From a virus (lineage: Duplodnaviria; Heunggongvirae; Uroviricota; Caudoviricetes), in the IMG/VR virus record IMGVR_UViG_3300007770_000878: 64,000 bases of DNA. The stretch is one strand, 5' to 3'. The notes under the pieces were generated by a model that saw only the letters and a program-made list of their open reading frames with translations, did not search any database and was not told the origin of the DNA. Shown here in pieces: positions 21,259 through 56,060 of this stretch; position 1 is the stretch's first letter, and each line of letters starts with the position of its first letter. The position numbers and the translations under genes were made by a program.

Positions 21259-21276
21259 CTGATAGCTAAAAAAAGG
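21259..21276 (-). promoter_or_regulatory. conserved 18-nt intergenic motif copy 1 ('CTGATAGCTAAAAAAAGG' on plus; 'CCTTTTTTTAGCTATCAG' in gene orientation)
   Basis: Identical 18-mer at three sites. It lies 7 nt upstream of the start at 21251 and overlaps the stop of the upstream gene. Confidence 0.55.
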
Positions 21277-24200
21277 TCATACGTACGGACGACTCAGCTG
21301 CGGGGTTGCTGGCATCATGTGCAACACCCGATCAAGGGGATTGGACATGATGGGATCGTAACCCTCAAGACTGGCCAAGGCTCGTTGCCAACGTTGCCCC
21401 ATCGGAGCCAAGGCCAGGTTGAGGCTATCAGTATTATAGGCTTTGGCGACGTTTTGCCGACCCTGTATTAACAAGGCGTTGATGTAGTTGCTAGCGTTAC
21501 GCAGAGCAGACTGGTCGCCTCGGTAAAGGTGTGCAGGGTTTACTTGGGAGAAGGCTCGCAGGTAGTGCGAATCTGTGCTGTGCTTGACTTCAGGTACTGT
21601 TGGCTGCTCAGCAGCTTCCCTGGCTTTCTCTACTGCCCGGTGAGTGTAGTAGGTTCCGACGCCGCCTTTGGCACCGCCTAAGATAGGCCCAGCAACACCA
21701 AGGGTACTACCGATTTGACCAGACAACGCTTGCGATAAGGGCTGCATCGTAACTAGCCGCCGCAACGCGTTGGCACTGCCTACGGCGGCTTGGGCCGCGT
21801 GACGGCCCACACTACGGCCACCAGCAATACCTGCTGCTGTCCACAATGGGATGTTATATTTCTCCGGGATAACTGTAGACCATTCCAGCGGCTTTTGGAT
21901 GATCGGGTCGTGTAGAATGTCGCCTGGAGTTTGCCAGTCGCCTTGGCCCATCCGGTAGCCGCCGTAACCGGCACCGCCTACGACGCCTGCGGTGCCCAAC
22001 GCGGTTCGGCGATTTGCGGTTAGCAGTTTGTTCCACAAGTAGTCGTTAGCCTTCCGACCAAGCTTTGACTGCCAGCGAAGTAGGTGCTTGACGCCAGGTA
22101 GTGTCAGAAGTCTAGCAAGTGAGGCTTCTTTTTCCAGGGCTGTGTGCTCGTCGGGATCTATTCCGATCCCGAGTTCAGCGAGTTTTTCAGACGTGAGTCC
22201 GAGGTCTGGCTGGACGAGAATTGATTTTTGCCTACTACTGGCTTCTCGGTTAGTGCACGCTGCACGGACCAACCTCGCTGAAGACGCCTGGTCAATGTCT
22301 GCTGCCTGATTCCCGACTCTCTCGCCCATTGTGTCAGATGCTTGGTTTCGCCGCGAAAAGTCAAGCACACGTTGCTCCGAGTGTTTGCTGCCTGTTTCTC
22401 GAGAGGTATCCAAGTGCAATTCGTGGGACAGTAGTCTTTGTCGTTGTTCTCCCTCTCCAGCGAATAACCGTCTGGGCACGTTCCCATGTCTTCCAGAAAG
22501 TTCTCGAAGGAGTCCCGCCACCTTGCACATATCTTTATGCCTCGTCCTCCGTAGTGTTTGTAATTGTGCCGTTTTGGGTCCAGGCAGCGGCGTTTCATCC
22601 CCGCCCACACCTTGTATGTTTTCGTTCCACTTTGTCCGTGAGTCGTTCTGGATTTGTGTCCTTGCAGAAACCTGCCTAGACTGTTTCGTTGTTGCATAAG
22701 GTTGATCCTCGTGAAAAGCCAGAAAGCTCGGTGCTCGATAAGCTCCGCTAGGAAGCTGTTCTTGCGATTGGATTCGTGCAATCCTTCCGGCATAGTCTTG
22801 ATCGTTCTCGAAAAGGGACCTGCGTAACTCGTCCGTGAAACCTGTTCCTACCTTACCAATTATAGGCCCGTCAGGTGTGAGTGAGTATTCGAAGCCGCCA
22901 GCACCCGATCCTTCGTGTTTACCTTTGCCCGGAAATGCTTGGCGATAATACACGTCTACGTCTTCTAAAATTTTTCCTTTCGTGGGGGGACCGTGTAGCG
23001 GATGCATGACTACACCCTCTCGAGTAATCGGGTGCTCACCAGACTGTATTTGTTGCCAGAGTCTCTGGGCGGCTTCGGGCGTCTCTGCGGCTTCTGAGAT
23101 GTGAAACGTCTCGGGCGGTAGGTGCTCAAGAACTTTTCGAATCATATCCCTACGCTCGAGCCGGGGAGTCACATGCCAGTCGATTGGTTTGTTGCCTAGC
23201 TGTTGGATATCGTAAACGGCATTTCTGAGTTTTACTTGTCGCTCTCGCTGGTCTTGGATTGATTTGGCGACGGAGGAGTTGAGCAGTCCTCCAAGTTCTT
23301 GAGGGCGGAGTACTCGCTCTCGCTGAGTTGGTCTACCGGTACCGGCGGAAAGAGCCTCTTGAAGATATTCTCCGAGTCCGTCGTCTTGGGGCCTAACAGT
23401 TCCGGGAACATCCTCCTGGTCTGCTCTCTCTGAAACTCGAGTATCTCTTTCTCGCCCTCCGTCAGGTTCAAAGCTCCCTTCCGCCAGCTGAGGTTCATCA
23501 GCAACATGGCCGCGTAGAGGGTCTCCCTTGTCAGCGGAGCCATCACCATCTCCGGATCCTCCAGGTCGCACTCCGTAGAGTTCGCCTTTAAGTACCGTGC
23601 CAACCAGGTCGTCTGGGATGTTGTAAGCGGGGAGACCATGAAGCAATCTTTCTGTGTGAAGTATCGGTCGGCCCGTTTCCTTGGACGTACGGTAGGACAT
23701 CACCTCGACGCCCTCTTTCATTAGTTTAATCAGCGAGGAGGCCCCGTCAACCTTTGCCTCCAGAGTATCGCCTTTTTGCATTTGGCCGATGTACTTGTCG
23801 ACCTGCTCCGCTGGAATCTTTTTGTACCGTACTTTCTCGTACGGCAATTGCTCAGTCGGGGTCTTGTTGATAAGCAACCAGTCTTTATCTTTCCAGCCCT
23901 TCGGTTTGATCATCACGAAGCGTTGCGGGTGCTTCTTGTGGGCCATGGTGAAGTGGATAGATTCCGGACTGGCTTTGGTAATGAGAAGTTTGCCATCCTC
24001 TTGTTTCTTAACCCGTCCAGCCCCATAGCGTCCGCTAGGAATTGTGCCCTCCCAATCTTTGTACTTGTAGGAGTGCATGGGCTGCTGGAATAGGGCGGTT
24101 CGTCCGCCAATGCCGGGCATCGGTTTTCTGGTTGCCCAGGAGAAGAGCCCTTTGGGGTCTCCGAATCGGAAATCAAAGTGAGGGCCAGCTCTCTCGGCAA

Positions 24201-24474
24201 GATGCCGTTGGATAACGAAGTCCAGTAACTGCGGAGAAACTCTAGATAGGTCGCCATAGTACTTTCGGTCTGGAATGCCTTTCGCGTCTTCACCCCTCTT
24301 TTCGTGAATTTCCCCATGGAGGCGATTTTCCCGAACGGGAAGATACGAAAGAAGTTCTGGCCACAAACCCCCTGTTAGGGGTGATGATACCTTCTCCAAA
24401 TTCCCGATCGGGAATCCGAGCATAGACATCTCTTCGGCGTCAGTGCTGAGTTCAGGCAGCAAGATATTGGGCAT
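21277..24474 (-). CDS. LigD-like 3'-phosphoesterase (PE) domain + ATP-dependent DNA ligase. The track ORF (1065 aa) continues without a stop into a Gly-rich C-terminal region
   Basis: PE domain: 'HFDFRFGDPKGLFSWATRKPMPG...DWEGTIPSGRYGAG' matches LigD PE 'HYDFRLE..G.LKSWAVPKGPS...DFEGSIPQGHYGAG'. Ligase motif I is 'EAKVDGAS', motif III is 'VLKGELYG', motif IV is 'REGVVMH', and motif V is 'KGKILEDVDVYYRQAFPGKG'. The GTGF region is 'IIGKVGTGFTDELR'. Residues about 560-772 overlap the HNH-like ORF in another frame and look compositionally non-native (Arg/Ser/Gln-rich). Confidence 0.7.
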   Translation of the reverse strand: MPNILLPELSTDAEEMSMLGFPIGNLEKVSSPLTGGLWPELLSYLPVRENRLHGEIHEKRGEDAKGIPDRKYYGDLSRVSPQLLDFVIQRHLAERAGPHFDFRFGDPKGLFSWATRKPMPGIGGRTALFQQPMHSYKYKDWEGTIPSGRYGAGRVKKQEDGKLLITKASPESIHFTMAHKKHPQRFVMIKPKGWKDKDWLLINKTPTEQLPYEKVRYKKIPAEQVDKYIGQMQKGDTLEAKVDGASSLIKLMKEGVEVMSYRTSKETGRPILHTERLLHGLPAYNIPDDLVGTVLKGELYGVRPGGSGDGDGSADKGDPLRGHVADEPQLAEGSFEPDGGRERDTRVSERADQEDVPGTVRPQDDGLGEYLQEALSAGTGRPTQRERVLRPQELGGLLNSSVAKSIQDQRERQVKLRNAVYDIQQLGNKPIDWHVTPRLERRDMIRKVLEHLPPETFHISEAAETPEAAQRLWQQIQSGEHPITREGVVMHPLHGPPTKGKILEDVDVYYRQAFPGKGKHEGSGAGGFEYSLTPDGPIIGKVGTGFTDELRRSLFENDQDYAGRIARIQSQEQLPSGAYRAPSFLAFHEDQPYATTKQSRQVSARTQIQNDSRTKWNENIQGVGGDETPLPGPKTAQLQTLRRTRHKDMCKVAGLLRELSGRHGNVPRRLFAGEGEQRQRLLSHELHLDTSRETGSKHSEQRVLDFSRRNQASDTMGERVGNQAADIDQASSARLVRAACTNREASSRQKSILVQPDLGLTSEKLAELGIGIDPDEHTALEKEASLARLLTLPGVKHLLRWQSKLGRKANDYLWNKLLTANRRTALGTAGVVGGAGYGGYRMGQGDWQTPGDILHDPIIQKPLEWSTVIPEKYNIPLWTAAGIAGGRSVGRHAAQAAVGSANALRRLVTMQPLSQALSGQIGSTLGVAGPILGGAKGGVGTYYTHRAVEKAREAAEQPTVPEVKHSTDSHYLRAFSQVNPAHLYRGDQSALRNASNYINALLIQGRQNVAKAYNTDSLNLALAPMGQRWQRALASLEGYDPIMSNPLDRVLHMMPATPQLSRPYV
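22158..22793 (-). CDS. HNH/AP2-type homing-endonuclease-like protein (211 aa), embedded in an alternative frame of the ligase ORF
   Basis: 'TYKVWAGMKRRCLDPKRHNYKHYGGRGIKICARWRDSFENFLEDMGTCPDGYSLERENNDKDYCPTNCTWIPLEKQAANTRSN' is the signature of phage free-standing HNH/AP2-domain endonucleases ('Y..W..M..RC.......Y..YGGRGI.VC..W..F..F..DMG.RP.G.SLDRID....Y.P.NCRW....EQ..N.R'). Confidence 0.65.
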   Translation of the reverse strand: MPEGLHESNRKNSFLAELIEHRAFWLFTRINLMQQRNSLGRFLQGHKSRTTHGQSGTKTYKVWAGMKRRCLDPKRHNYKHYGGRGIKICARWRDSFENFLEDMGTCPDGYSLERENNDKDYCPTNCTWIPLEKQAANTRSNVCLTFRGETKHLTQWARESGIRQQTLTRRLQRGWSVQRALTEKPVVGKNQFSSSQTSDSRLKNSLNSGSE

Positions 24475-24506
24475 AAGGATCTCCTCCCAAAGATTCTAGC
24501 AGGCCC

Positions 24507-24545
24507 TGATAGCTAAAAAAAGGCCCCGACTTTCGTCGGGACCCA
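24507..24545 (-). promoter_or_regulatory. conserved 18-nt motif copy 2 plus adjacent hairpin (terminator-like: stem 'GGCCCCGAC TTTC GTCGGGGAC' then T7 in minus sense)
   Basis: 'ctgatagctaaaaaaagg' then 'ccccgactttcgtcggggac'. In minus sense this is a hairpin, then TTTTTTT, then 'AGCTATCAG'. The next start codon (24474) is 32 nt downstream, after SD 'GGGAGGAG'. Confidence 0.6.
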
Positions 24546-24565
24546 CTAGTGTGACTTCTCGCAGC

Positions 24566-24901
24566 CTAACTCATGAACGCGGCCAGTGGTCGCGATCGTC
24601 TGTTAAGCGACGTAGATTCGGCACGTATGGCCGCGAGCTGGCTTGCAATCTCAGGGGGGAAGAAGCCATACGGGAAGAAGTCAAGTACCCGTCTGCCCAG
24701 TTCACAGAGTGTCGGGATCTCGTTGCGGTAAAGTCCGCCTTGCTTAACTGAAATGTTGCCATTGCTGTTGGCGTATATCACATCGAACCCAAACGTATGG
24801 ATGTGACTATTCCAGTGTAAGACAAGTTGTCGGACGTCCACATCCAGGTAGTCTGGCCCGACCTCGACACTTCGCTGGCTTTGCATGAAAGCCTCCATCA
24901 T
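24566..24901 (-). CDS. hypothetical protein (111 aa)
   Basis: ORF. Lies upstream of the terminator-like hairpin at about 24523-24545. Confidence 0.4.
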   Translation of the reverse strand: MMEAFMQSQRSVEVGPDYLDVDVRQLVLHWNSHIHTFGFDVIYANSNGNISVKQGGLYRNEIPTLCELGRRVLDFFPYGFFPPEIASQLAAIRAESTSLNRRSRPLAAFMS

Positions 24902-26184: not shown

Positions 26185-26187
26185 GGG

Positions 26188-27027: not shown

Positions 27028-27543
27028 TTACTTGAATGCGTTCTTGCGTCGGACTCCTATGGTGATATGGAACTTGAACCTATTGTCCTTGGGCAACGCA
27101 GATAGCCCGTAGCTTTTCCGCAGGTTCTGTAGTTCGGGTGAGTGGACCTCGATCATCCACACTTTGGACATTTCGTCCCAACCATAGGGCTTCACACATT
27201 TTACCGGTCCGAGGGTGTACCGAAAAGTGTGACCGCGTTCCCTGATTTTGCCAGATCCCCCGATTTTATCGATTTCGTCCTTGCGAAAGACAGAAATATG
27301 GGCATTAAATGTCCCGCTGTCCTGTCGCGGCAGCTCTACGCCGGGTTCTTCCAGGGCGTCGAAAGCACCGTGAACAAGGGCGTTTGGGACGCTAAGCAGG
27401 CCCCAGCCGGAGTTGGAGATATAGAGTTTGCCTGCCAGCCCATACGACAGCCATGGTTTGCTGGAGACCTTCACGAAGTCGTGAGACAGCTCGTAGAGGG
27501 CCTGGCCTGGCGTCGTTACTGTACTGGGACGATACAGGCTCAC
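27028..27543 (-). CDS. 2H-family phosphoesterase (LigT/ThpR or Acb1-like 2',3'-cyclic phosphodiesterase; 171 aa)
   Basis: Two H-x-(S/T)-x motifs about 78 residues apart, 'FNAHISVFR' and 'FKFHITIGV'. This is the hallmark of the 2H phosphoesterase superfamily. Confidence 0.55.
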   Translation of the reverse strand: MSLYRPSTVTTPGQALYELSHDFVKVSSKPWLSYGLAGKLYISNSGWGLLSVPNALVHGAFDALEEPGVELPRQDSGTFNAHISVFRKDEIDKIGGSGKIRERGHTFRYTLGPVKCVKPYGWDEMSKVWMIEVHSPELQNLRKSYGLSALPKDNRFKFHITIGVRRKNAFK

Positions 27544-28250: not shown

Positions 28251-29183
28251 TTAACTCTCGTAGTCAAGCGAAAATTGCTCGACACCTTCCCGCCAATCCG
28301 GCAGAGGAATAGGTACTACATCAGCGAATTTGCTACAGTCGAGAGCCGTATGGTATGGCAGGAGCTTAGCGTCCCAGCCACCGAAGGCCTGCGACATCTG
28401 TTCGCGTGTAGTTGACCGGATCTTTAGCGGACGTCGTGAATTTGACGAGATTTCTTGCCCAAACTGGTAGGCAGAACAGTGACCTAGATTGCCAACGTGG
28501 TATACACCCGACGGCATTTCACGGTAGTGCCGCACCAACCAGACCAGAGCCTTGGCCAGGTGCGGAGCGTATGTCGGAGTGAAGATCATGTCGGAAGCAA
28601 GGGACACCTCTTCGCCACGGCGGTTATCCGCTTGACGAAGTATCCGGCTGACGAGGTTCTGGTTTTGTCGCCATGGGCGTTCGTACAGAAGTCCTGTGCG
28701 AATAACCCAGTACCGGAAGCCTTTTTGCCAAAACTCGGGGCAAACACATTGCCCAAGTCGGAGCACGCTGTGCTCAGCACATGCTTTCGTAATAGCCAGT
28801 TGGTGGCAAGGCACCACCGGATCGGTCTCCGTACGCGGCCTAGGGTCGCGGTTGGAGCCGAAAACACTGTCACAACTGATATGTACAAAAGGAATCCCGT
28901 GCAAGGCACATACCTTAACGAGATTGTCCGTCCCCTGAACGTTAGTCTGCCAGCAATCATTCCGCTTGTGTTCGGCAGTAACCCAATCCGTCATAGCAGC
29001 GGTATGGATAACAGCGGCTGGTCGCAGCAAAGGAATCAGTTCCTTGACCTTCGTCATGTCGGATACGTTGAAGGTCTCGCGGGGCTTGGCTATTACAGAC
29101 TCCTCGCCCAGCTGCCGCACCAGTTCCATCCCTAGCTGGCCGTTGGCTCCAGTGATCAGATATTGTTGGATGGATTCTGGCAT
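28251..29183 (-). CDS. NAD(P)-dependent sugar epimerase/reductase, dTDP-4-dehydrorhamnose reductase (RmlD)-like (310 aa)
   Basis: N-terminal Rossmann motif 'YLITGANGQLGMELVRQL' (RmlD: 'LLTGANGQVGREL'). Length and layout fit the RmlD/SDR extended family. Confidence 0.65.
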   Translation of the reverse strand: MPESIQQYLITGANGQLGMELVRQLGEESVIAKPRETFNVSDMTKVKELIPLLRPAAVIHTAAMTDWVTAEHKRNDCWQTNVQGTDNLVKVCALHGIPFVHISCDSVFGSNRDPRPRTETDPVVPCHQLAITKACAEHSVLRLGQCVCPEFWQKGFRYWVIRTGLLYERPWRQNQNLVSRILRQADNRRGEEVSLASDMIFTPTYAPHLAKALVWLVRHYREMPSGVYHVGNLGHCSAYQFGQEISSNSRRPLKIRSTTREQMSQAFGGWDAKLLPYHTALDCSKFADVVPIPLPDWREGVEQFSLDYES

Positions 29184-29918
29184 TTAGCTAACCGCAAATT
29201 TGTAGTGGGTGTCAATGACCGTACGAAGGTAATCAGAAGATTCTTCTGGTAAGGTCCACCTACCTTTATGGTCCGGGTTAGCGTGCAGACCCATGACGTG
29301 GAAATGGTCCCACGTGTTGTGTCCTGTGAAAAACCGCAAGTAGAGGTGCGGGTTGGCTGCATTATCAAGAACGATCATTTTGTCCTTGAAGTGGTCTTGC
29401 AAAAAGTGGTCGTCCTCAGCTTTACGCTCAGAACGATAGGCCAGGCCTGGTTTGTTGGGGTGCAGAACGGTGCCGGGAATGGCCGGGTTGGGTTTGTAAG
29501 GCCACCGAAAAGCTTTCGCAGAATCGTTAGGAAAACTGTATCGGACTTGACACTTTAGCAAAACGGCGTGGTCGTCAACGGCCTCGTCCATCTGCATAGC
29601 GATTCGCCAAGGATGGTACCAGTCGTCATCGTCCCACTGTATAACCCATTCGCCGTCAGCTTTCTCTAAGCCTTTGTTACGAAGATCGCCTAGTGTGTAA
29701 GCTCCTGACGGAAATGTCGATTCTCTAATATCGGTACCAGGGGGTAAACTGGTAGACAGGAACGGTAACAACGGCACTTTGCCGTCATTGATGATGACCA
29801 ATTCCTTATTGGGCCAGGTTTGCGACAAGAAGCTCTGTACTGCCGCCAGAGCATACGGTGCTCTTTCAGGATCCTTCCCGGTGACCATTACAGCAGTCAC
29901 TAACGGGATGTTGGACAT
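29184..29918 (-). CDS. glycosyltransferase, GT-A fold / family 2-like (244 aa)
   Basis: 'VTAVMVTGKDPERAPYALAAVQSFLSQTWPNKELVIINDG' and an acidic 'WDDDDW' (DxD-like) motif. Confidence 0.55.
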   Translation of the reverse strand: MSNIPLVTAVMVTGKDPERAPYALAAVQSFLSQTWPNKELVIINDGKVPLLPFLSTSLPPGTDIRESTFPSGAYTLGDLRNKGLEKADGEWVIQWDDDDWYHPWRIAMQMDEAVDDHAVLLKCQVRYSFPNDSAKAFRWPYKPNPAIPGTVLHPNKPGLAYRSERKAEDDHFLQDHFKDKMIVLDNAANPHLYLRFFTGHNTWDHFHVMGLHANPDHKGRWTLPEESSDYLRTVIDTHYKFAVS

Positions 29919-29985
29919 TCGCTGCTCCTAAGGAGGATGAACCGGTTCTCCTTTAGATTATCCCTGTCAAGAGCAATTTGTCAAG

Positions 29986-30035
29986 CAGCAGCTAATAGCT
30001 AAAGCGAGGGGGAGTGGTTCGGATAGAGCCCTCCC
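29986..30035 (-). promoter_or_regulatory. degenerate fourth copy: 'TAATAGCTAAAG' + hairpin ('GCGAGGGGGAG...CTCCCTCGC')
   Basis: Same architecture (AGCTA core next to a GC hairpin) in the intergenic space upstream of the GT gene starting at 29918. The T-tract is only 3 nt. Confidence 0.35.
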
Positions 30036-30056
30036 TCGCCCTAGCCACCTCTCCGA

Positions 30057-34235: not shown

Positions 34236-35066
34236 TCAATAGAGTACGATTTGGCTCGGGTTCATGAAAATACGGCCCATTCCGGCTTCCCGCATTTTGC
34301 GGTGAAATGGGACATGCTCGCAGTCCGAACCGTCGTACGAGCACCGCAACATTGCCTCTACACGATAAACCCCTAACCCGCCGAAGCAGGAGTAGAGCGG
34401 AACTAAAGCTTCGCCCCGGTTCCAGCGTCGGGGATTGATCTTTGGTGCAAAGCAAGGTTGATAGGTGCCTTGCCAGCGAAATGCCCAGACGTCGAAGTAG
34501 ACTGGGTAGTTGTTCTGGCCGTTAAAGTGTTTGAACATGATCCCGTTGCTTCCAACGAAGTCCCATGCCTCGGTCTTGGAAAAGGTGTGGGCGATGCCGT
34601 CGTAGCTCCACCCGCCAGTCAGGTCGGTATCAAGTACGATGACGTTATCTACGTCAGGGTACTTCTCCGCAATTTTGAGTCGGCACTGATTTCGGTAGTG
34701 AGCCATACGGGCTGCCCGGTTTAGACACCGGATTTGCGGATTCACAGGATCGCCCCGGCGTTCAGACGTAAGGTCTACGCTGGAGTTGGAATCAGCCCAA
34801 GCCTGTAACAATTCAGGCGTACGGTCGCGAGAGTCGTTTTCGTAAAGCACCACACGGTAGTCCTGAAACAGCTCTCCTAGCCGCTCAATGCGGGAGGTTG
34901 TTATCGGGACTGCCTTTTCGATGTTACGAGCGAGACCAGCGATCACTACCGATCGTTCCTTCATTACCTCGTATCCGTAGGTAACCTCTTGCTGATATGC
35001 TTCGGCGAGGTTACTCGTGGGAGGAAATCGGTCTTCGTCAAATACCGCAAAACTGGGATCAGTCAT
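34236..35066 (-). CDS. hypothetical protein, possible glycosyltransferase-like enzyme (276 aa)
   Basis: 'VIVLDTDLTGGW' (DxD-like) and 'CFGGLGVYRV...CEHVPFH'. Assignment is weak. Confidence 0.4.
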   Translation of the reverse strand: MTDPSFAVFDEDRFPPTSNLAEAYQQEVTYGYEVMKERSVVIAGLARNIEKAVPITTSRIERLGELFQDYRVVLYENDSRDRTPELLQAWADSNSSVDLTSERRGDPVNPQIRCLNRAARMAHYRNQCRLKIAEKYPDVDNVIVLDTDLTGGWSYDGIAHTFSKTEAWDFVGSNGIMFKHFNGQNNYPVYFDVWAFRWQGTYQPCFAPKINPRRWNRGEALVPLYSCFGGLGVYRVEAMLRCSYDGSDCEHVPFHRKMREAGMGRIFMNPSQIVLY

Positions 35067-36911: not shown

Positions 36912-37736
36912 TTACGACATCGAACGAGGATTACATGGCACCGATTCCGACAACATTCGCTCAACGCGGATGTTATTGTCTTTGCAGTATGCCAGAGTTT
37001 GCTCCTGATCGTAAAGCGGGTCGCAGACAAAGATGCTCGGAGCTAAAACGCTAAGTACACTGGACTGGTCGGGTTCGGTATAGGTTACCGTTGCATCTAC
37101 AACAGGCAACGCGTTAAGCAGCCGCCTACGCGATGAAAGTGTCAAGAGCGGCGGGTTTCCATGCTCGTTCTCGACGGCAGCGTCAGACTGGACGCCGACT
37201 ATCAGGCTGCTGCCCAACTCGGCAGCACGCTCCAACTGCATGTAATGACCCACGTGAAATGGGTCAAATACGCCAAACATGTAGGTGACCGGCTTCGCTG
37301 AACTGGGCGACAGTCTAACGTCCATGCGAAGCTGCTCAACAGTCCGTGAGCCTACTTTGCTAAGCAGATCAAGCCACATACTGTCTTCTTCGTCCAGTAT
37401 AGCCAGTAGCAGATGCTCAGTTCCTACGTACAGACCATCCACGTCACTTGAGTAGGTTATCGCCTTGTCCGTCACACGTTTACAGCGAGGAGTCCTCGGT
37501 AGGCTGTCCACATAGACTATATAGCTAGGACCGTCGCCAAGCCGAGCAGCCATAAATCGTTCGACATCTCCGGCAAAGACATTAGCGTTGTTGAGCACGG
37601 TCTGGGCAATGCCACCGCTTTTGAGCAGACCGTACACGACATGCTCTACGCCGATGTACTCGTGCCGCAGGCGTTTGGCAAAACGCTTGGCTTCGGTGAA
37701 GCTATGGTGTGCTCTGTCGGTAAATCGTTCAAACAT
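36912..37736 (-). CDS. fusion of Clp N-terminal (Clp_N double repeat) domain with a class-I nucleotidyltransferase (cytidylyltransferase-like) domain (274 aa)
   Basis: 'MFERFTDRAHHSFTEAKRFAKRLRHEYIGVEHVVYGLL' and the second repeat 'LYVGTEHLLLAILDEED' match ClpA/B/C N-domain repeats ('MFERFTDRARRVL..A..EA.RL.H.YIGTEHLLLGLL'). The C-terminus 'MFGVFDPFHVGHYMQLERAAELGSSLIVGVQSD' carries the (H/T)xGH nucleotidyltransferase motif. Confidence 0.6.
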   Translation of the reverse strand: MFERFTDRAHHSFTEAKRFAKRLRHEYIGVEHVVYGLLKSGGIAQTVLNNANVFAGDVERFMAARLGDGPSYIVYVDSLPRTPRCKRVTDKAITYSSDVDGLYVGTEHLLLAILDEEDSMWLDLLSKVGSRTVEQLRMDVRLSPSSAKPVTYMFGVFDPFHVGHYMQLERAAELGSSLIVGVQSDAAVENEHGNPPLLTLSSRRRLLNALPVVDATVTYTEPDQSSVLSVLAPSIFVCDPLYDQEQTLAYCKDNNIRVERMLSESVPCNPRSMS

Positions 37737-39042: not shown

Positions 39043-39804
39043 CTAGAAAGGAAACCATTGACGACGAATAACTTCTCGCCGCTCGTAATGCCCCTGTCCG
39101 CTCGACACCGCTTCCTTTCCTTCGGGTAAATTGTGAAAGCGACCGTGAAGCATGCCCGGAACGCAGTGAAAACACTTTCTTCCGTTGGCCAAGAAGCCGG
39201 GCCAGCTCACGTCGCCATCGTGGGCAATCGCCCCGAATGGTGCTTTGAGTAAGGCGGATCTACGGGCTATCCAAAATCTGCCTTTGACTATGTCCACCGG
39301 CGAGTCGACCTTAGGTAGGTTGACGCCGGGGCTCTCTCGGTAGGTCTTGTCGGGTTCGAGAACAATCCCGTGAGACCCGATAATGACATCGTCGTCCTGC
39401 TTGGCCAAGAAGCCCAAACAATCCTGCAAGACTGCCGGATCGGCCAGCGATAGGTCGTCGTCAATTTTGCCAACGAACTCGGTGTCACAAAGAGCCATCA
39501 TGCTGGCCCAAGCTCCGCACCGCAGATTGCGGCTGCTACGAATAATCGTATCGCACCTAGCAACAAGGTCGCTAGGAAGCTTGTCAGGAGAGTTGTTCCA
39601 CATCCAGATAGCCGGTGAACAGCTTTGGGCTGCTACACTGTTCACAACGCGTCGTACGTTATTGGGCCGACGGTGTGTCAGCAACCCCATCGTCAGTTTC
39701 GCGGTCATTGTAAAACACCATAAACCGGTGAGGACTAAACTGGCCAACGCTGGGCAGTAACGCGGCGAGCTTATTGATTTGAGAAGTGTATGCCTGCCCA
39801 GCAA
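39043..39804 (-). CDS. putative glycosyltransferase (GT-A-like; 253 aa)
   Basis: 'FVGKIDDDLSLADP' and 'KQDDDVIIGSHG' acidic motifs. Weak assignment. Confidence 0.4.
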   Translation of the reverse strand: MLGRHTLLKSISSPRYCPALASLVLTGLWCFTMTAKLTMGLLTHRRPNNVRRVVNSVAAQSCSPAIWMWNNSPDKLPSDLVARCDTIIRSSRNLRCGAWASMMALCDTEFVGKIDDDLSLADPAVLQDCLGFLAKQDDDVIIGSHGIVLEPDKTYRESPGVNLPKVDSPVDIVKGRFWIARRSALLKAPFGAIAHDGDVSWPGFLANGRKCFHCVPGMLHGRFHNLPEGKEAVSSGQGHYERREVIRRQWFPF

Positions 39805-40510
39805 CAGGTACGTTCAACTTGTCCTTGAGAACGCGGGTGATAGCGAAGTAGGTGCTGTGGTTGTCGTATGGCCTAGCAAGCAGGCGAAAGCCTAGGTCAT
39901 GTAGCCACTTTGTTGTCAACTCGCCATTAAGATAGAGATTTTGCTCCGGCATCTGTAACGCAGGTAGCCCGACCTCAACTCGAAATGCATTCAGCGTACG
40001 GAACCCCTCGCCAATAGGCTCCTGCAATATCAGCTGCTTGCGGCTTGCATCGGCTAGGTTCTTGATCGCCTGATGTTGTCTGGCTCGAGTGCCTAGGTTA
40101 CAGAGAACGCGAGACGTATACACGGCGTCCCATTGCCGATCAAAGGGTTCGCAAACGTCGTGCTGGAAGTAGTTGGGGCAATCGGCTGAGGCTATATCGA
40201 TCGCTTGCTGGTTTAGATCACAGCCGTAAAAATCAATTTCGGGAAAATTCTTGCGGTAAACCGCAGTAGAGTGCCCGTTGTTGCAGCCAGCGTCTAGAAA
40301 TGAGTCGATTTGTCGGATCACAGACGCCCGCGTAGGCTCGAGTGTGATCGGGTAGGGGGTTAGCCAAGGGGTCAACCATCTGATCAACGACTCCCGCTCT
40401 TTCTCTACGGCAAAAATGTCAGCCCAGGAAGAGTCGGAAGAGTTGGCATGTTTCTGGATACGTTGTTCCCAGAACTCAGCGTTGCCCTCGGGCAAACGGT
40501 AGTCGGTCAT
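39659..40510 (-). CDS. class I SAM-dependent methyltransferase (283 aa)
   Basis: Motif I 'SFLDAGCNNGHSTAVY' and motif II-like 'IDFYGCDLNQ'. Confidence 0.55.
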   Translation of the reverse strand: MTDYRLPEGNAEFWEQRIQKHANSSDSSWADIFAVEKERESLIRWLTPWLTPYPITLEPTRASVIRQIDSFLDAGCNNGHSTAVYRKNFPEIDFYGCDLNQQAIDIASADCPNYFQHDVCEPFDRQWDAVYTSRVLCNLGTRARQHQAIKNLADASRKQLILQEPIGEGFRTLNAFRVEVGLPALQMPEQNLYLNGELTTKWLHDLGFRLLARPYDNHSTYFAITRVLKDKLNVPVAGQAYTSQINKLAALLPSVGQFSPHRFMVFYNDRETDDGVADTPSAQ

Positions 40511-40511
40511 G

Positions 40512-41069
40512 TTATAGCTTTCTAAAAGCGACCATCATCCCGGCCAGGCCGAGAAGTTCCCAGTCAGAGCTGTTGGTTAGCCTCTGGTCTACCACGTCGG
40601 TGATCTCGGGCCATTTAGCACTACCGTAGTCATGCAAGATGATCACACCACCATCGACGATCTTAGGCAGCCACTCATCTAGCTCTTTGTTTAGGACCGA
40701 CGCCTTGTGATCGGTATCGATGATCAGTGCTGAGACTTGTTTGATGGAGGGCTGAGGTTTGGTGGATTCGGCTCGCATAAGTCCGGGAAAGTACCCCAGT
40801 GCCGCCAGGTTGTTGTGGGTAGTCCACAGGTCATTCTTGCCGTGGTGCTGCATCTTGAAATGATCGATGCCGATCACAAATAGGTGACCAGGTCGATCGA
40901 CTACAGCTCCGCAAATAGCGGCGGTGGAGCGGCCTTTGAAGGTTCCTAGCTCTACCACCAACCCGATAATTGGAACCTCGTTTAGAATCGTGTCATATAG
41001 GAATTCGAGTTCTTTGACTGTTGTCAGCCCCTCAATTCCCATAGCCATGCTAACTCGCTGAAACTTCAT
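40512..41069 (-). CDS. SAM-dependent O-methyltransferase, TylF/MycF (Methyltransf_24)-like (185 aa)
   Basis: 'GLVVELGTFKGRSTAAICGA' and 'GVIILHDYGS'. Confidence 0.55.
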   Translation of the reverse strand: MKFQRVSMAMGIEGLTTVKELEFLYDTILNEVPIIGLVVELGTFKGRSTAAICGAVVDRPGHLFVIGIDHFKMQHHGKNDLWTTHNNLAALGYFPGLMRAESTKPQPSIKQVSALIIDTDHKASVLNKELDEWLPKIVDGGVIILHDYGSAKWPEITDVVDQRLTNSSDWELLGLAGMMVAFRKL

Positions 41070-41676
41070 CGGTCATCCCCTGGAAGCACGCAAATTGAGA
41101 GAGGTCTGGGTAGATTTCCTGTTGATCGGCATTGTAATCCGGCAAACGACTCAGCCGTAGAAGGCCTGCTGCTGCGAAGACAGGGTCGAGCGTGTAGTGC
41201 CAGCCCACCATTTCGATATCATCCTCTCGTAGTGGCACCTCCGGATGTCGTCCCGAAAAGCGAGCTTCACGGAGCCACCGATCGGCGTCCGGATCGTCGT
41301 GAAGAATCATACCACCGCGACCGGCGTTGAGGATTTTGGAGAAGTGGAAGGACAGGCATTGCATACGACCAGGTACGAACATGCCGCTGGTGAATCTCTT
41401 GGCCGAATCCCAAATACAGGTGTCACCAAGCTGGTATTCACCAGACCAGGTCCAGTCGGCGAAGCGGACGCGGCCGCCTGCATGAATGATCTCGCAAGGT
41501 ACAGACACATAGGTCCGCTTCGGAATTTTGATGTAAGGTTGTTTGTCTACGTGTTCGTGTTTGCAGCAGAGAAAGAGGGCGTGGGTGCAACTATCGACTG
41601 CCACCGCATAAGGGGCACCGCAGTACTTGGCCACCTCTCGCTCAAACTCTTCAACCACTACATAGGGGTTGCTCAT
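41050..41676 (-). CDS. DegT/DnrJ/EryC1/StrS-family (sugar aminotransferase/dehydratase-like) protein, short form (208 aa)
   Basis: 'EFEREVAKYCGAPYAVAVDSCTHALFLC' (compare 'FE.EFA.Y.G.KYAVAV.SGT.AL.LAL') and 'LSFHFSKILNAGRGGMIL' (PLP-Lys context 'SFH..K...GEGGMI'). Confidence 0.5.
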   Translation of the reverse strand: MSNPYVVVEEFEREVAKYCGAPYAVAVDSCTHALFLCCKHEHVDKQPYIKIPKRTYVSVPCEIIHAGGRVRFADWTWSGEYQLGDTCIWDSAKRFTSGMFVPGRMQCLSFHFSKILNAGRGGMILHDDPDADRWLREARFSGRHPEVPLREDDIEMVGWHYTLDPVFAAAGLLRLSRLPDYNADQQEIYPDLSQFACFQGMTDEVSAS

Positions 41677-41678
41677 AA

Positions 41679-42719
41679 TCAGTCCTCATAAATCCAGTTA
41701 GGATTCGCCCGTACCCACTCGATGATACGGTCTAGTGTTGTGTCTAGTTCGAACGGGTAGTTAAACCCGCTCGCTCGCAATAAGTTGTCTTGCAGTGCGT
41801 ATCGGCGATCGTATCCGGGTCGAACAGTGTCGCCGTGTACCAGTCGTGTTTTGGCGACCACACCTAGCTTGCCCGCCACTCTGTGCACAAGCTCGCCTAC
41901 ATTAAGCTCAGTCTCTCCGATTATGTGAAATCGATCGGGGCGGTCTTCTGGGTGCCGGAAAGCAGTCGGTGGGCCCTGTTTACAGATATAGACTAGTGCC
42001 GCCGCCATGTTTTTTGCGTCGAGCCAAACTCGCCTAGCCAGTTTGTTATCCGACTCACCGTGCAGCACGATTGGTTTGTCGTTGGTAAGCCTGTTGATAA
42101 CCATTGGCAAGAATTTCTCTGGATCTTGCCACTCACCTACTGCGTTCATGGTATTGGTGATTACCACGGGAACGTTGTACGTTCGCCAGTAAGATGTGGC
42201 AAGAGCCTCTTGAGCTGCCTTGCTTGCTGCGTAAGGGTTGCTAGGCAGCATTGAAGACCACTCTGCGTGACCAGGCCCACTCCAGCCGGAGTCGCCGTAA
42301 ACCTCGTCAGTGCTAACCTGTATAAAAACTCGCGGCTTGCCAACGCGAGCCAGTTCCAACATGTTGTAGACCAGGTGTACGTTGTTCAGCCAGCAAGCCC
42401 CTGGGCGGTCAATAGAGCGAGCAACATGGCTATCGCTGGCCATGTTAATCCAGTAGTCAATCGGTCCGGCGTCAAATAGTTCGTTACGGAATGGGGTTGT
42501 GAATTCGTGGGATAAATCCCATTGCATTAGCTTGAGACGATCCCATTGCTCTGGTGTTACGTTTTTTTGAACGGCCTGCAGTCGCGACGGGCTGCTTCGA
42601 TGTCGGAGTTGCCAGCTATCGATTCCGACCAGGTCCCAGTCGGTATGTTCCAAAATCCACTGGGCGGTGTGCGACCCGATGAATCCGCCGACACCTGTCA
42701 ATAATGCTCTGGTCGTCAT
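41679..42719 (-). CDS. rmlB: dTDP-glucose 4,6-dehydratase (RmlB)-like NAD-dependent epimerase/dehydratase (346 aa)
   Basis: 'LLTGVGGFIGSH', 'VSTDEVYG', 'YAASKAAQEALATSYWRTYNVPVVITNTMNAVGEWQDPEKFLPMVI' (YxxxK catalytic context and the RmlB-specific 'QxPEKLIP' motif). Confidence 0.8.
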   Translation of the reverse strand: MTTRALLTGVGGFIGSHTAQWILEHTDWDLVGIDSWQLRHRSSPSRLQAVQKNVTPEQWDRLKLMQWDLSHEFTTPFRNELFDAGPIDYWINMASDSHVARSIDRPGACWLNNVHLVYNMLELARVGKPRVFIQVSTDEVYGDSGWSGPGHAEWSSMLPSNPYAASKAAQEALATSYWRTYNVPVVITNTMNAVGEWQDPEKFLPMVINRLTNDKPIVLHGESDNKLARRVWLDAKNMAAALVYICKQGPPTAFRHPEDRPDRFHIIGETELNVGELVHRVAGKLGVVAKTRLVHGDTVRPGYDRRYALQDNLLRASGFNYPFELDTTLDRIIEWVRANPNWIYED

Positions 42720-43606
42720 GCCGTAAATTCCTTGCGGTCAGTATCGTCGGGGAAGACGTCAAGCTTGACATCGTCGTAGCCCCATGCCTTCCAATTCTGG
42801 TCAGTGCCGTGGATTCCATGGCGACCAGTGTATTGCACGCGGTTGACCACCGTATGCACTTTGCATAATCCTTTGTTGAAGCAGGCAAGGGCCGTACAGG
42901 CGTCTTGCCCGCTCGGCCATTTGCTGCCTCGTTGAAGCATTTCCGCCCCTAGACCGCACCAAGTGCCAGCCGTAAAGGGTCGGGGACCACGCGGAGCCAC
43001 GGCGTTCTGCACCAATCCTCGCATGAAGGTTCGGATGTGCTCATGGGGTCGCTTGGAATAGTGTCGCCCGTCGAGGAAGTTCCGCTCGTACTCGTATAGA
43101 ATCGCCTTAATACCTTCCCAGGCATTGCGGGGCATAACGTATGCCGTCCAGTGCACGTTGCTGGCCGTAACCTTGTCTAGCAAGGGTTTCTTGGCTTCAC
43201 TAGACAGCTTGCAGAGATTCCACACACTGGTCGCCGCGACGTTGTCGTAGTTCGCTTCCGCCCAGTCCTGGAGGTTCTCAGACAAGGCAAAGAAGTTAGG
43301 AGCAACAACCACGTCGTCTTCCAGAAGGATCATTCGGTCGAATGCCTCTAGGTCGAGAATGGTTCTGCGGGCGTTTATGATGTTACGTCCGCAACCGAGA
43401 CCTACCCTGTTCCGAATCACCCGCAAGTCCTTAATACCCGACTCACGAAGGATTTTCTCGTTCTCGTCCTGCGTTGACCCGGAACCTCCGTCCAGAAACG
43501 CGTAGAACGGTAGCGTCTGGGATTCAGGGTTACTGACAATAGACGCTACCAGCATTCGGAAATAATCAGGGCGGTTAAAAGCTACTAGGGCTACGGCAGT
43601 CGCCAT
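42716..43606 (-). CDS. putative glycosyltransferase, GT-A fold (296 aa)
   Basis: 'VALVAFNRPDYFRMLVASI' and 'MILLEDDVVVAPNFF' (DxD-type). Confidence 0.5.
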   Translation of the reverse strand: MATAVALVAFNRPDYFRMLVASIVSNPESQTLPFYAFLDGGSGSTQDENEKILRESGIKDLRVIRNRVGLGCGRNIINARRTILDLEAFDRMILLEDDVVVAPNFFALSENLQDWAEANYDNVAATSVWNLCKLSSEAKKPLLDKVTASNVHWTAYVMPRNAWEGIKAILYEYERNFLDGRHYSKRPHEHIRTFMRGLVQNAVAPRGPRPFTAGTWCGLGAEMLQRGSKWPSGQDACTALACFNKGLCKVHTVVNRVQYTGRHGIHGTDQNWKAWGYDDVKLDVFPDDTDRKEFTA

Positions 43607-50232: not shown

Positions 50233-50237
50233 CGAAT

Positions 50238-50275
50238 AAAAAAAATGTCCCCCACGCCGCCCGTGGAAGGCGGCG
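50238..50275 (-). terminator. intrinsic-terminator-like hairpin + U8 (minus-strand sense)
   Basis: Plus: 'aaaaaaaatgtcccccacgccgcccgtggaaggcggcg'. In minus orientation this is 'CGCCGCCTTCCACGGGCGGCG' (7-bp GC stem) followed by 'TTTTTTTT'. Confidence 0.6.
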
Positions 50276-54300: not shown

Positions 54301-55936
54301 GCTTGTCTGTCCCCGTCTTTTCTGGCAGATGAAGCAGTGTTCGCATACGTTTGTTGGCTGAGCCTGCCATGTGTGAGCCTAATCCCTTTATGTCCTGTAG
54401 ATTGGGTGGGTTTGTGATGAGGTGGTGTAGCTTGGTCCACTTACTGGCGTTTCCCTGGGGTTTTGGCCTGAATCGGTCGTATGCGGCCTCGCCTGCCATG
54501 TAACCAGCGGGAATACCAGCCAATCCGCCGCCAAGTCCTGCCCTAAGCTCCCCTGGCGATGTGAGTTTGACGCCTGGGATCGGTGAGAGGCCAGTGGGGC
54601 GAAAACGGCGATAAAGAGCCCTGGCACCGTGAGAACCAAGCCCCATTCCAAGCCAAGATGCCAAAAGACCAGGCAAAATGGCATCTTTCTCCATGTGAAT
54701 CCCTTGGTCGCTTGTGGAATTGCCCTGGCCAGCCGAACTGGACTTTCCATAAGCACCCATAAGCACGCCAGAGTCTTGGCGATCACGCTCCGGCCCCATT
54801 AATTCATCAGCCAGGTAATCTCCGCCCTTCCCTGCAGCATAAGAACCCAAACCACCGGAACCGAAGATTGCAGCAAGACGAAGCCAAGGATTATCAACAG
54901 ATGAAGAGAGTTCGTTCCCGGCCATCGCACCAATGCCAAAACCTGCTCCGGATGCTCCGCCCGTCAAAGCACCACGGGCCATGCCGTGTAACTTTGAATC
55001 GTCGGGAGCACGGCCTAAGCCACGAGCGGCACCCCATCCTGCACCTAAACCCAATGATAGCAAGGGGTTGGCTCGTTTCTCTGTCGTCGCTCTTTTACTG
55101 GCCGTGGCGTGATGTCGGTCGCCAGAAGGGTCTGGCGTCAAGTACGGAGACTGAATACCGGACAGATTAGCCCTGGCGTCAAGACCGTAAGTGTTGCCCT
55201 GGCCATAGGTTGCGTGTTTGTGTCGATCGAGCGTTGTGTTAGGAACACGCCCTGCCTCCGTCCGAGCAACCTCTTCACAAACCCCCGTCGGAAGGGCATT
55301 GGCGGATGACTTCGAACGAACAGGGTAAGCCCGAGCAACCGCTTTTCGTGTCTTTTCTTTACCTATCAGAGCCAGATTACGTGGGGTATTAGCCATCTTT
55401 GGCAACATTCCCCCCATCGGTACCTGATCCTCTGGTGAAAGCGGCTGTGGAGTCTGAGTACTCGCCATAACAGGACTACGCAACGGCACTTGGCTCGTAA
55501 TTGGCCCCTCACCCGGCTTCTGAATAGCTCCAGTCGCTCCAAACCCTGGAACTGGTGACTGTGGAGGCAACATAGGCTGTTGTGGGGGTTGCTGAGGCAT
55601 TTGACCCTGGCCAGCTACCTGCATTGGCATATTAGCCATTTTAGGCTGAAGCCCTGGCAGCTTATGTGGAAGAGCCGCCTGTCCAGGTAACGGTTTAGGC
55701 AACAAACCAGGAGCTATCGTATTCATAGCTGCAGGCGATTGAGCTACACCCTGTGGAGTAGCCAATACCGGGGGCTTGTGAAGAGGTGTTGCTCCTGGAG
55801 CTGGTCCTGCTACACGTCCTGCCTGTGGGGAGTTAATACCAGAAGTACGTGCCATCTGGTGTGGGCTCTCAGTAGTTGGCATCTGCATGTGATCAACCGC
55901 ATTAGTTGTTAACGGTTGAGGTGTGAGATTTGGCAT
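51335..55936 (-). CDS. giant Pro/Gln/Gly-rich low-complexity protein (1533 aa)
   Basis: Single uninterrupted ORF. The first roughly 450 and residues 900-1200 are extremely P/Q/G/A-rich with 'PQQPPQQP' runs. The central and C-terminal parts are Gly-rich with aromatic residues. The antisense plus ORFs were rejected. Confidence 0.6.
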   Translation of the reverse strand: MPNLTPQPLTTNAVDHMQMPTTESPHQMARTSGINSPQAGRVAGPAPGATPLHKPPVLATPQGVAQSPAAMNTIAPGLLPKPLPGQAALPHKLPGLQPKMANMPMQVAGQGQMPQQPPQQPMLPPQSPVPGFGATGAIQKPGEGPITSQVPLRSPVMASTQTPQPLSPEDQVPMGGMLPKMANTPRNLALIGKEKTRKAVARAYPVRSKSSANALPTGVCEEVARTEAGRVPNTTLDRHKHATYGQGNTYGLDARANLSGIQSPYLTPDPSGDRHHATASKRATTEKRANPLLSLGLGAGWGAARGLGRAPDDSKLHGMARGALTGGASGAGFGIGAMAGNELSSSVDNPWLRLAAIFGSGGLGSYAAGKGGDYLADELMGPERDRQDSGVLMGAYGKSSSAGQGNSTSDQGIHMEKDAILPGLLASWLGMGLGSHGARALYRRFRPTGLSPIPGVKLTSPGELRAGLGGGLAGIPAGYMAGEAAYDRFRPKPQGNASKWTKLHHLITNPPNLQDIKGLGSHMAGSANKRMRTLLHLPEKTGTDKLAYPSTFLGQAGIGGPQAGEVREVSTHTTGQIGVPTPGSAGPSGYIAEKLARAPTDWDEMLHKLKARRDPDNREPWLYLRKLAGATNTTNASAAGEYRKPYKVAPDQSGREVDLGDVKREKGVDSMLTPGGTSESLFVAPDPENQLKKAQAPGIRSLASKPGQKQAFDASGLPQTNDEAFPPGSTNPYGWHPTTEMIPPHLANDPQFQQNQYDPLNEVDFPSTWPPKQISHAGQNIPPEAYDLPDDGTDPFTSGDISGFKPHTPGTQIGGGMGGQSPFQTEPSRLWEGRGEPAPEEFDQRPDGLLGIPGTETPPDRPIQEQMQAQDPFARARADARADEWPAEMMRQETQPIPPEGYYQGNWDQDGTGYDRITPGPQVPQMPAPGVQQQQQPPEAPQGPPEPTFTPGASSIGMGLPSAGELSQEIPQAPQQQFAGPTPGMSAVNPPVSPGLDAQQQQAAQIAGISPAEMAQRIQRFESGSEHPESAVPPAQAGPQPQQAPAAPIAPQKPAMPPQPAVGTVLEQNVPGMGGMQRVQGQGGHEYQPTPGIGAISPGSQPIPSPGPKPGRYASQIARAQQAGNMREVRRLQGLEQRTPASYASQAGTPAHQAFTKRYDMFASGQDPNAFNRMRGMESHLAGQSAIQSNLAQNLPGAMKSRAAKPQPFKVIKPHEMGAGGQGPQVGKVPHQQPLAPKMAALEKQAFKQLGGKLLRTGLGYLGGSGAGYGADQIAGLAGYDTGGALSHIGGALGGGSAFLGPRRMMQMGKTLGGARGQGAAKSLMQMGTMPKSPQALQWVKGGPLGKNISNLGRRAVYQGHRMFNPWASGQNTGQRVFSALAGGGLAAEGIRGMAESRAQDYVDQYAKQFGYPDAQSFINSPAAKMMGMWGNMSPGMKAGLLGGGALGLGGLGMMAAGGSTGGGLGMMGAGAGLGALGALGGSPSMQHYAQQAMANLQNQPGFQNLPPDQQQGLMQRILAQLQNGQVGGTARG

Positions 55937-56009
55937 GGAGACGGCTTCCCTGACTATGGTGTAGTTGCCGAGTTTTGACGTTTGGCGATAAGCGGATTAT
56001 AGCGTAACG

Positions 56010-56060
56010 CTGATAGCTAAAAAAAGGGGAGAACCAAAGCGACTGCCTGGCTAACTCCCC
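56010..56060 (-). promoter_or_regulatory. conserved 18-nt motif copy 3 plus adjacent hairpin ('GGGGAG...CTCCCC')
   Basis: 'ctgatagctaaaaaaagg' then 'ggagaaccaaagcgactgcctggctaactcccc'. It lies 73 nt upstream of the start of the 1533-aa gene. The intervening sequence contains 'GCTATAATC'. Confidence 0.55.

Follow-up and report, generated by a model that had tools for sequence, protein, structure and literature searches.

What reads a short sequence that recurs unchanged between the genes of a phage encoding its own RNA polymerase (RNAP)? The question is raised by an 18-nt element in a 64,000-nucleotide stretch of the IMG/VR record IMGVR_UViG_3300007770_000878, a virus of the class Caudoviricetes; this whole stretch is referred to here as the window. 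A sequence-only reading had proposed that TTTTTTTAGCTATCAG is a promoter or pause signal read by the phage RNAP. The analysis described below leads us to a different explanation: the element probably combines a terminator U-tract with a conserved distal box at the ends of transcription units, doubles as a recombination seam and is not a promoter of the phage RNAP. We place the probability of this explanation at roughly 0.58.

The Element in the Window

On the plus strand of the window, the 18-mer CTGATAGCTAAAAAAAGG is found without mismatch at 21259–21276 (copy 1), 24506–24523 (copy 2) and 56010–56027 (copy 3). When up to three mismatches are allowed, the window contains four matches against 0.04 expected, and four was reached by no shuffle. 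Because every long open reading frame (ORF) lies on the minus strand, the element is read in that direction, where its coding-strand form, CCTTTTTTTAGCTATCAG (exact three times), resolves into CC-T7-AGCTATCAG, a T-run followed by a 9-nt box. The flanks of the three exact copies bear no relation to one another. Only four runs of seven or more T residues are present on the coding strand of the window, three of which are accounted for by the 18-mer; the fourth belongs to a T8 terminator (50245–50238) that has a hairpin of −31.7 kcal/mol and lacks the box.

Copy 2 (minus strand) displays the anatomy of an intrinsic terminator, its T7 forming the U-tract of the GC-rich hairpin GGGTCCCGAC-GAAA-GTCGGGGCC just upstream (24522–24544, minus strand; fold −25.5 kcal/mol, z −3.3). 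The terminator scan reports it as terminator-like with a 10-pair stem (24544–24521), located 48 nt past the stop codon of a 111-aa ORF (24566–24901). Copy 3 (minus strand) adjoins an imperfect hairpin, GGGGAG...CTCCCC (56026–56060, minus strand; fold −21.6 kcal/mol, z −2.9), which lies downstream of a 99-aa ORF (56070–56369) and is not called by the simple terminator scan. Copy 1 (minus strand) has no hairpin (fold −9.3 kcal/mol, z −0.34) and occupies a 25-nt gap between two ORFs: it begins immediately past the TGA of a ligase-like ORF of 1065 aa, and 7 nt separate its end from the ATG at 21251. A degenerate copy, CGCTTTAGCTATTAG (29992–30005, minus strand), with a short T-run and one box change, follows a long hairpin (30006–30049, minus strand; fold −31.2 kcal/mol, z −2.8). 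The arrangement of an intrinsic terminator, in which a hairpin abuts a T-run downstream of a co-oriented gene, is therefore found at copies 2 and 3 and the degenerate copy, and not at copy 1.

In most respects these results agree with the sequence-only reading: the threefold identity (with the second copy at 24506 instead of about 24507), the unrelated surroundings, the two strong hairpins and the weak structure at copy 1 are all reproduced, and the degenerate fourth copy suspected near 29990 is real. The T8 terminator at 50238 also exists, but the sequence 'GATAGCTAG' cited beside it is no equivalent of the box; it lies ~20 nt upstream of the terminator hairpin and overlaps the upstream stop codon.

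Separate promoter-like hexamers are present downstream of the element. TAGAAT follows copy 2, and TATAAT (56001–55996) begins 8 nt on from copy 3, with the ATG of a 1533-aa ORF 73 nt downstream on the copy 3 side, beyond TATAAT. A near-consensus promoter, TTGACA-16-GATAAT, is found at 29984–29957, just after the degenerate copy. A sigma-70 promoter composed of the element and TAGAAT or TATAAT was considered and rejected: the −35 position would fall within the T-run, and the promoter scan calls no such promoter. Other candidate identities fared no better. Resemblances to IHF, LexA, ops and tRNA D-arm sequences were dropped because spacing or partner half-sites are missing; pairing of the 9-mer with RNA upstream of the hairpin was likewise rejected, the extra stability being that of shuffled 9-mers. 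No match of the element to an Rfam family or a tRNA was found, and literature searches on its sequence yielded just unrelated primers and the like, with nothing relevant on Planctomycetes terminators.

Position at the Ends of Transcription Units

To which end of a transcription unit does the element belong? Orientation was scored in loci from the database scans described below, using a gene caller trained on the codon usage of each locus, the longest-ORF rule being misleading in G+C-rich loci. Over ~100 independent instances the upstream gene almost always has the orientation of the element. For hairpin-bearing intergenic copies, the upstream gene is co-oriented with the element in 75 cases and opposite in ~5 (~94% co-oriented), while the downstream gene is co-oriented in 53, converging in 19–23 and diverging in none. 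Expressed as occupancy, hairpin-bearing copies are found at 53 of 1030 co-directional junctions (5%), 19 of 83 convergent junctions (23%) and none of 72 divergent junctions (convergent versus divergent, p about 7e-6). Convergent cases withstood inspection. In L075, two terminators stand face to face, with three downstream ORFs on the other strand; in L077, a 754-aa ribonucleotide reductase converges and ends 3 nt from the element. The converging gene in L002 and L087 ends ...RWVEKNKR*, with synonymous differences between the two copies, and it stops at a TGA supplied by the element read in reverse complement.

A promoter would mark the starts of units, divergent junctions included, with no need of a co-oriented gene upstream, and one belonging to the phage RNAP would be confined to polymerase-encoding genomes and present throughout their clade; neither distribution is observed. 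Enrichment at convergent gene pairs, as for a terminator, is observed (23% against 5% of co-directional junctions). This pattern identifies the element as linked to terminators and not as a promoter, and it supports the earlier placement of the element between transcription units, directly after terminator-type hairpins whose U-tract is the T-run. As a separate observation, many genes downstream of the element in relatives of low G+C content (L030, L041, L091, L114, L057, L074, L075, L120 and L071) have TATAAT 6–9 nt before the ATG and no Shine-Dalgarno sequence, implying leaderless or near-leaderless mRNAs.

Distribution in Phages and Bacteria

The phage itself has no close relative among GenBank phage records; megablast of 20 kb against INPHARED returned no related phage. 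Two window proteins, one of 1885 aa with Rpb2 domains, a LAGLIDADG intein and Rpb1 domains 1–2, the other of 1020 aa with Rpb1 domain 5 and a second intein, constitute a multisubunit RNAP in which beta is fused to the N-terminal half of beta'. The inteins reside in the genes at 11653–17310 and 7110–10172 (minus strand) and give Intein_splicing, LAGLIDADG_3 and Hint matches; in relatives such as L103 the polymerase gene is split into several tblastn pieces, suggesting further insertions. The closest cultured phages are Salmonella phage Arash and Vibrio phages D69, D181 and D148 (31–33% identity). Arash virions contain abundant polymerase subunits and a sigma factor (PMC10585845); in the window, homologues of the Arash sigma factors could not be detected. 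Arash and D69 encode the same type of polymerase; the element occurs neither in the whole Arash genome nor in the first 50 kb of D69, and no cultured carrier was identified. Arash, without the 9-mer box, has AGC after 5 of its ~45 strongest listed hairpin-plus-T-run sites, several of them bidirectional terminators of the form AGCTAAAAAG-hairpin; these sites may be the trace of a shorter ancestral version of the element.

Among uncultivated phages, by contrast, sequence comparison establishes that the element is real and widely spread. A scan of IMG/VR for T6-AGCTATCAG (TTTTTTAGCTATCAG) returned at least 120 matches, with many contigs containing two to four copies, against 88 stretches, every one with a single copy, for a scrambled 15-mer of the same composition. 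Among the matches listed, the carriers range from 31 to 60% G+C and many measure 180–225 kb, and a hairpin with a dG of −9 kcal/mol or lower adjoins 59% of instances compared with 4% of the control. A metagenome scan with the 18-mer yielded at least 120 loci, and among the matches listed a hairpin precedes 83 of 108 distinct instances (77%). Some homologue of the window or Arash proteins is encoded in 53% of hairpin-bearing loci versus 12.5% of control loci, and 11 motif loci contain a polymerase homologue (31–57% identity). Further support came from an independent sample of 80 loci (1.52 Mb) retrieved through the polymerase alone, in which the exact 12-mer core occurs eight times against 0.18 expected and 21 9-mers within two mismatches of the box follow runs of five or more T residues, against five to seven in controls.

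The T-run and AGCTA are the parts best kept among variants, which include AGCTATTAG, AGCTAACAA and AACTATCTG. The variant AGCTATTAG is seen again after hairpins in the relatives L153, L180 and L200; L180 also has T-run-AGCTATGCAGG, with a variant box, in tandem, and L396 has exact copies in tandem. Orthologous hairpins show compensatory changes next to an unchanged box. No conserved partner was found at a fixed distance on either side, the information content being confined to T-run and box. Such conservation of 9 nt past the U-tract supports the earlier suggestion that the element is more than an ordinary terminator.

The element is also present in bacteria. Among species-representative bacterial genomes the exact 18-mer was found in 51 stretches, compared with a chance expectation of ~17 by our estimate, and ~30 of the 51 belong to Planctomycetota (Pirellulaceae, Planctomycetaceae, Phycisphaerae and Gemmataceae), including 0.9–3.7 Mb contigs and two isolates. 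The over-representation in this phylum is strong (L294–L344, e.g. L310 Novipirellula rosea, L335 Rhodopirellula maiorica and L301/L316/L338). Most genome copies are preceded by hairpins of −20 to −36 kcal/mol. In the largest family the element is part of the terminator of a ThiF-family gene, conserved across nine Pirellulaceae species and located in some of them beside RepB/ParB partition genes; in another it ends a gene for a 56-aa membrane protein. Homologues of phage-clade proteins are found in just one of the 51 loci, which resembles a misbinned phage contig, and the remaining terminators of the same Planctomycetota loci have no box. These data suggest Planctomycetota as hosts for this phage (54% G+C) and for at least a part of its relatives, as well as regulatory junctions common to phages and plasmid-like islands (ThiF plus RepB/ParB).

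In some non-planctomycete matches (L295, L296, L315, L323, L341, L397, L398 and L410) the 18-mer is followed by arrays of a 7-nt repeat, AGCTNTC, which in L410 takes the form of three GATAGCT units in the opposite orientation, and the other strand of the 18-mer provides the ribosome-binding site (AAAAAAAGGAG) of a gene. A similar sequence may simply have an unrelated role here, or AGCTATC may be a protein-binding unit.

Exchange of Modules at the Element

The boundaries of sequence similarity provide a second line of evidence. In a set of 254 distinct instances, anchored on the element, pairs sharing 40 nt at 80% identity or more on one side only were examined. Similarity stops 0 nt after the CAG that ends the box in 59 of 60 pairs alike only upstream, and 0 nt before the T-run in 10 of 11 pairs alike only downstream. 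Individual loci show what is exchanged. In L005 and L099, hairpin A is followed by the element and a converging terminator. At the same site the sequence is longer by 415 nt in L072 and by a different 570 nt in L075; both inserts open with a common promoter-like stretch (TGnTATAnT), bring cargo and a hairpin of their own, and have a copy of the element at either end. The upstream copies are slightly decayed (AGCTACCAG and AGCTGTTAG), while no base has changed in the copy that faces the converging terminator. In L425, unrelated hairpins precede three copies of the element, all of which are followed by the same block of 45 nt. A longer repeated block of motif plus promoter exists in some lineages (L425, L072/L075), and no position past CAG is conserved overall.

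The window contains a comparable arrangement. A ligase-like cassette (21277–24505, minus strand) comprises TAGAAT (24498–24493), the ribosome-binding site GGGAGGAG and the 1065-aa ORF, which has LigD phosphoesterase and ligase OB domains, and it is flanked by 18-nt direct repeats, namely copies 2 and 1. In L009 and L037 a single element stands between homologues of ORFs 27028–27543 and 20412–21251, with no ligase there. L119 has a hairpin-less copy after its ligase module (ligase 45% identical), at a place equivalent to copy 1. By analogy with L072 and L075, we infer that the ligase cassette was inserted; copy 1 would lack a hairpin and adjoin a stop codon because it closes a cassette that copy 2 opens.

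A further pair of elements, 394 nt apart, lies just after the polymerase gene in L103:9696–10130 (equivalent to L146:12684–13110), the second without a hairpin. Each L103 copy is then followed, 10 and 23 nt away, by the perfect palindrome ATTAACGTTAAT, which is operator-like.

Proposed Function and Opposing Evidence

The data presented above have led us to propose that the 18-mer is the core of a repeated intergenic junction element consisting of the U-tract of an intrinsic terminator (T5–8, here T7) and the fixed 9-nt box. The element is positioned at the 3' end of co-oriented genes, normally against a GC-rich hairpin of freely varying sequence. Its carriers form a large and deeply diverged set of uncultivated phages, numbering in the hundreds and including many relatives of this phage with a fused beta/beta'-N RNAP, together with Planctomycetota chromosomes and plasmid-like islands. 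Hairpin and T7 would end transcription. The 9-mer may be retained since a protein reads it, through polymerase contacts with downstream DNA, as a termination factor or as a bound roadblock, and strengthens termination thereby. Since numerous gene boundaries in numerous genomes have these 16–18 nt in common, the element would also act as a seam for the exchange of modules, presumably through homologous recombination across the common 16–18 nt, and inserted cassettes with a promoter, a gene and their own hairpin would finish bracketed by two copies.

Several observations weigh against this proposal. Termination by hairpin and T7 is deduced from their anatomy, and hairpin-less copies occur, not only copy 1 but also those in L119, L103 (the second copy), L052, L105 and L111. 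A cluster of copies ends 7–11 nt before a start codon, with a ribosome-binding site that begins CAG|AGG, and there is therefore no room for a separate promoter. Such hairpin-less and start-adjacent copies are either leaky terminators or have some initiation or processing activity; for the hairpin-less copies 7–8 nt before start codons, there is a small chance of re-initiation or RNA processing. A −10-like hexamer is found 4–8 nt past CAG in about one-fifth of co-directional cases by our count. In L388 (3089–3106, minus strand), the exact 18-mer lies in frame inside a gene, encoding EPFFSYQ, an awkward place for a terminator. That gene is a homologue (48% identical) of window ORF 20412–21251; the copy falls in a poorly conserved linker between its two halves, and no copy is present upstream of the gene. 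The box is found on only a minority of terminators in the window, its relatives and the Planctomycetota loci, and is therefore not a general requirement for termination. Finally, the breakpoint sample is anchored on the element, and breakpoints inside the element are undetectable in it.

It is possible, if doubtful, that a dedicated protein acts on the invariant T-run plus AGCTATCAG beside its freely varying hairpins, either as a sequence-specific termination factor or roadblock or as a cassette recombinase comparable to IntI at attC sites. If the recombinase version were true, large virulent phages, plasmid-like elements and Planctomycetota chromosomes would exchange gene cassettes with one another.

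Alternative Explanations

The proposal of the sequence-only reading was that the element is recognized by the phage RNAP. In its most developed form, the T-run plus AGCTATCAG would be a short promoter or re-initiation signal of the multisubunit enzyme, with the start at or near CAG and the hairpin serving as the terminator of the previous gene. The exact conservation past the U-tract is consistent with this, as are the conserved hairpin-less copies 7–34 nt before start codons (window copy 1 and L119) and the cluster 7–11 nt before ATG with its ribosome-binding site from CAG|AGG. The element also stands upstream of the same gene families, a 302-aa family in nine loci and a 279-aa family in the window, L037 and L090, and many carriers encode the polymerase. 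Short promoters adjoining the start site are known from the AR9 and phiKZ polymerases. Against these points stand the co-orientation of the upstream gene and the counts at divergent (0/72) and convergent (19/83) junctions. The exact 18-mer is present in Planctomycetota chromosomes that lack the polymerase, and Arash (whole genome) and D69 (first 50 kb), which encode the polymerase, are without the element. In L072 and L075 it is the copy facing a converging terminator that is perfect and the copy before the inserted promoter and gene that has decayed. Moreover, nothing is conserved at a fixed distance from the element, separate promoter-like hexamers (TAGAAT and TATAAT) follow copies 2 and 3, and merely three or four copies are available for ~85 genes in 64 kb. 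We consider a phage-polymerase promoter unlikely, and a pause signal read by that enzyme is likewise unsupported.

The invariance of a core adjacent to variable hairpins also suggests a site of recombination. In this scheme the element would be the recognition or crossover site of a dedicated, sequence-specific cassette-mobility enzyme, comparable to an integron attC, with termination as a secondary property. Direct repeats that bracket cassettes, breakpoints exactly at the element, the tandem copies in L396 (exact) and L180 (variant box), the in-frame copy at a domain boundary within the L388 gene and the range of carriers (phages, plasmid-like islands and bacteria of very different G+C content) would all be accommodated. 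However, no recombinase is consistently nearby among the proteins scanned, in which no systematic search was made, the conserved core lies outside the stem, unlike that of attC, and a T-run against a hairpin is standard terminator anatomy. Homologous recombination over 16–18 common bases would give the same pattern, as proposed for the promoter-early stem-loop (PeSL) cassettes discussed below. The probability of a dedicated mobility enzyme of this kind is low.

Phage mRNAs are processed at conserved intergenic hairpins, e.g. at the RNase III sites of T7, and UUUUUUUAGCUAUCAG might be an endonuclease processing or protein-binding site that leaves a hairpin-protected 3' end on the upstream mRNA and sets the 5' end of the downstream mRNA; this is compatible with the 3'-end context, the convergent sites, the hairpin-less copies and those adjoining ribosome-binding sites, but single-stranded specificity over 16 nt is unusual in an RNase, neither additional pairing of the 9-mer with upstream RNA nor an Rfam match was found, the breakpoints at the element are left unexplained, and we regard the idea as very improbable.

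Comparison with Known Systems

A junction motif at which modules are exchanged has a precedent. In T4-type phages, variable genes are flanked by composite motifs of terminator and promoter, the PeSL cassettes, through which modules are shuffled (Arbiol et al. 2010, PMC2839356; Comeau et al. 2014, PMC4122927), and the idea of a terminator/promoter junction module put forward in the sequence-only reading finds its parallel there. Like PeSLs, the element is a small repeated intergenic junction motif with a stem-loop terminator beside variable genes, indel and replacement crossovers fall within the motif, and a cassette has a copy on either side. The construction differs: PeSLs have a conserved sigma-70 consensus promoter, an AT-rich region and a polyG/polyC stem-loop, whereas the element has unrelated stems, a conserved U-tract plus 9-nt box and no fixed promoter. 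Its carriers are another phage lineage with its own polymerase, and it is conserved over deeper divergence (G+C 31–60%, proteins 31–57% identical) and in bacterial chromosomes as well. PeSL cassettes are the closest described system, and we regard the element as a terminator junction of similar type, set apart by a core that is unusually invariant and shared widely.

With intrinsic (Rho-independent) terminators in general the element shares the GC-rich hairpin followed by a T-run, the location 3' of a co-oriented gene and the enrichment at convergent junctions. It differs in its nine invariant bases past the U-tract, in having functional-looking hairpin-less copies and in being restricted to a subset of terminators. 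Phages phiKZ and 201phi2-1, which also encode a multisubunit polymerase, have terminators with recurring motifs, found by MEME at mapped 3' ends (PMC11512511). In those phages the conserved motif is the stem-loop itself and is specific to each genome, whereas the conserved part of the element lies outside the stem and is common to many genomes and to bacteria.

Sequence-specific termination that is independent of a hairpin occurs at class II sites of T7 RNAP (ATCTGTT plus a U-run) and at the poxvirus early signal TTTTTNT. Pol III and archaeal polymerases terminate at T-runs, and Pol I termination involves a T-rich element and a downstream Reb1/TTF-I roadblock. By analogy, a T-run next to a specific sequence might need no hairpin, which would account for copy 1, and the Pol I layout, a T-rich release element followed by a protein-bound site, would match the order of T7 and box. 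None of these signals resembles the element in sequence, and they serve as a working analogy only. Integron attC sites, lastly, have variable hairpins and a short conserved core at the 3' boundary of cassettes, co-oriented with the genes; their cores lie in the stem and are recombined by IntI, unlike the core of the element, which is outside the stem, and no integrase was seen among the proteins scanned in a search that was not systematic.

Other Features of the Window and Its Relatives

A second intergenic motif has the geometry of a promoter: CT(A/G)AA(T/G), 17 nt, CA(T/C)AAT, often with CG(N)GT before it. It occurs three times in intergenic regions of the window on the minus strand (24981–24953, ~48311–48283 and ~36280–36252) and also in the relatives L010, L019, L045, L051, L083, L090, L116, L371 and L441; in relatives, CTAAAT-N14-CGGCATAT is located 6–7 nt past the element. 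This motif is a better candidate for a phage- or host-specific promoter than the 18-mer. Another block, A(C/T)AAGCGACCAAGGA(G/A)TTGC, is common to the intergenic regions 59583–59477 and 56841–56731 (minus strand), shortly before two start codons, and a looser relative, CTAGCGACCTTGTTGCTAG, is present in the intergenic region 39658–39489.

Pfam scans of mid-size window ORFs identified sugar-modification enzymes. A cluster of glycosylation and sugar-nucleotide genes on the minus strand (28251–29918, 34236–35066, 36912–37736 and 39659–43606) encodes an RmlD-like reductase, GT2 glycosyltransferases, an NAD-dependent epimerase/dehydratase, a cytidylyltransferase fused to Clp_N and a methyltransferase. 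The cluster may serve DNA or virion glycosylation, or may consist of auxiliary genes.

Implications

The element provides a searchable marker of module boundaries in a large, wholly uncultivated group of phages (~180–225 kb) with their own multisubunit RNAP. It indicates that genome plasticity of the PeSL style, in which cassettes are exchanged at conserved terminator/promoter junctions, is not restricted to T4-type phages. For annotation, it advises caution: orientation and junction type should be checked before short intergenic motifs in polymerase-encoding phages are named 'phage promoters'. An invariant 9-mer past the U-tract falls outside the standard model of intrinsic termination and points to a reader, whether a polymerase contact, a termination factor, a roadblock or a recombinase. 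Finally, the presence of the same 16–18 bases in Planctomycetota genomes and plasmid-like islands suggests both a host phylum for these phages and a pool of cassettes common to phages and mobile elements.

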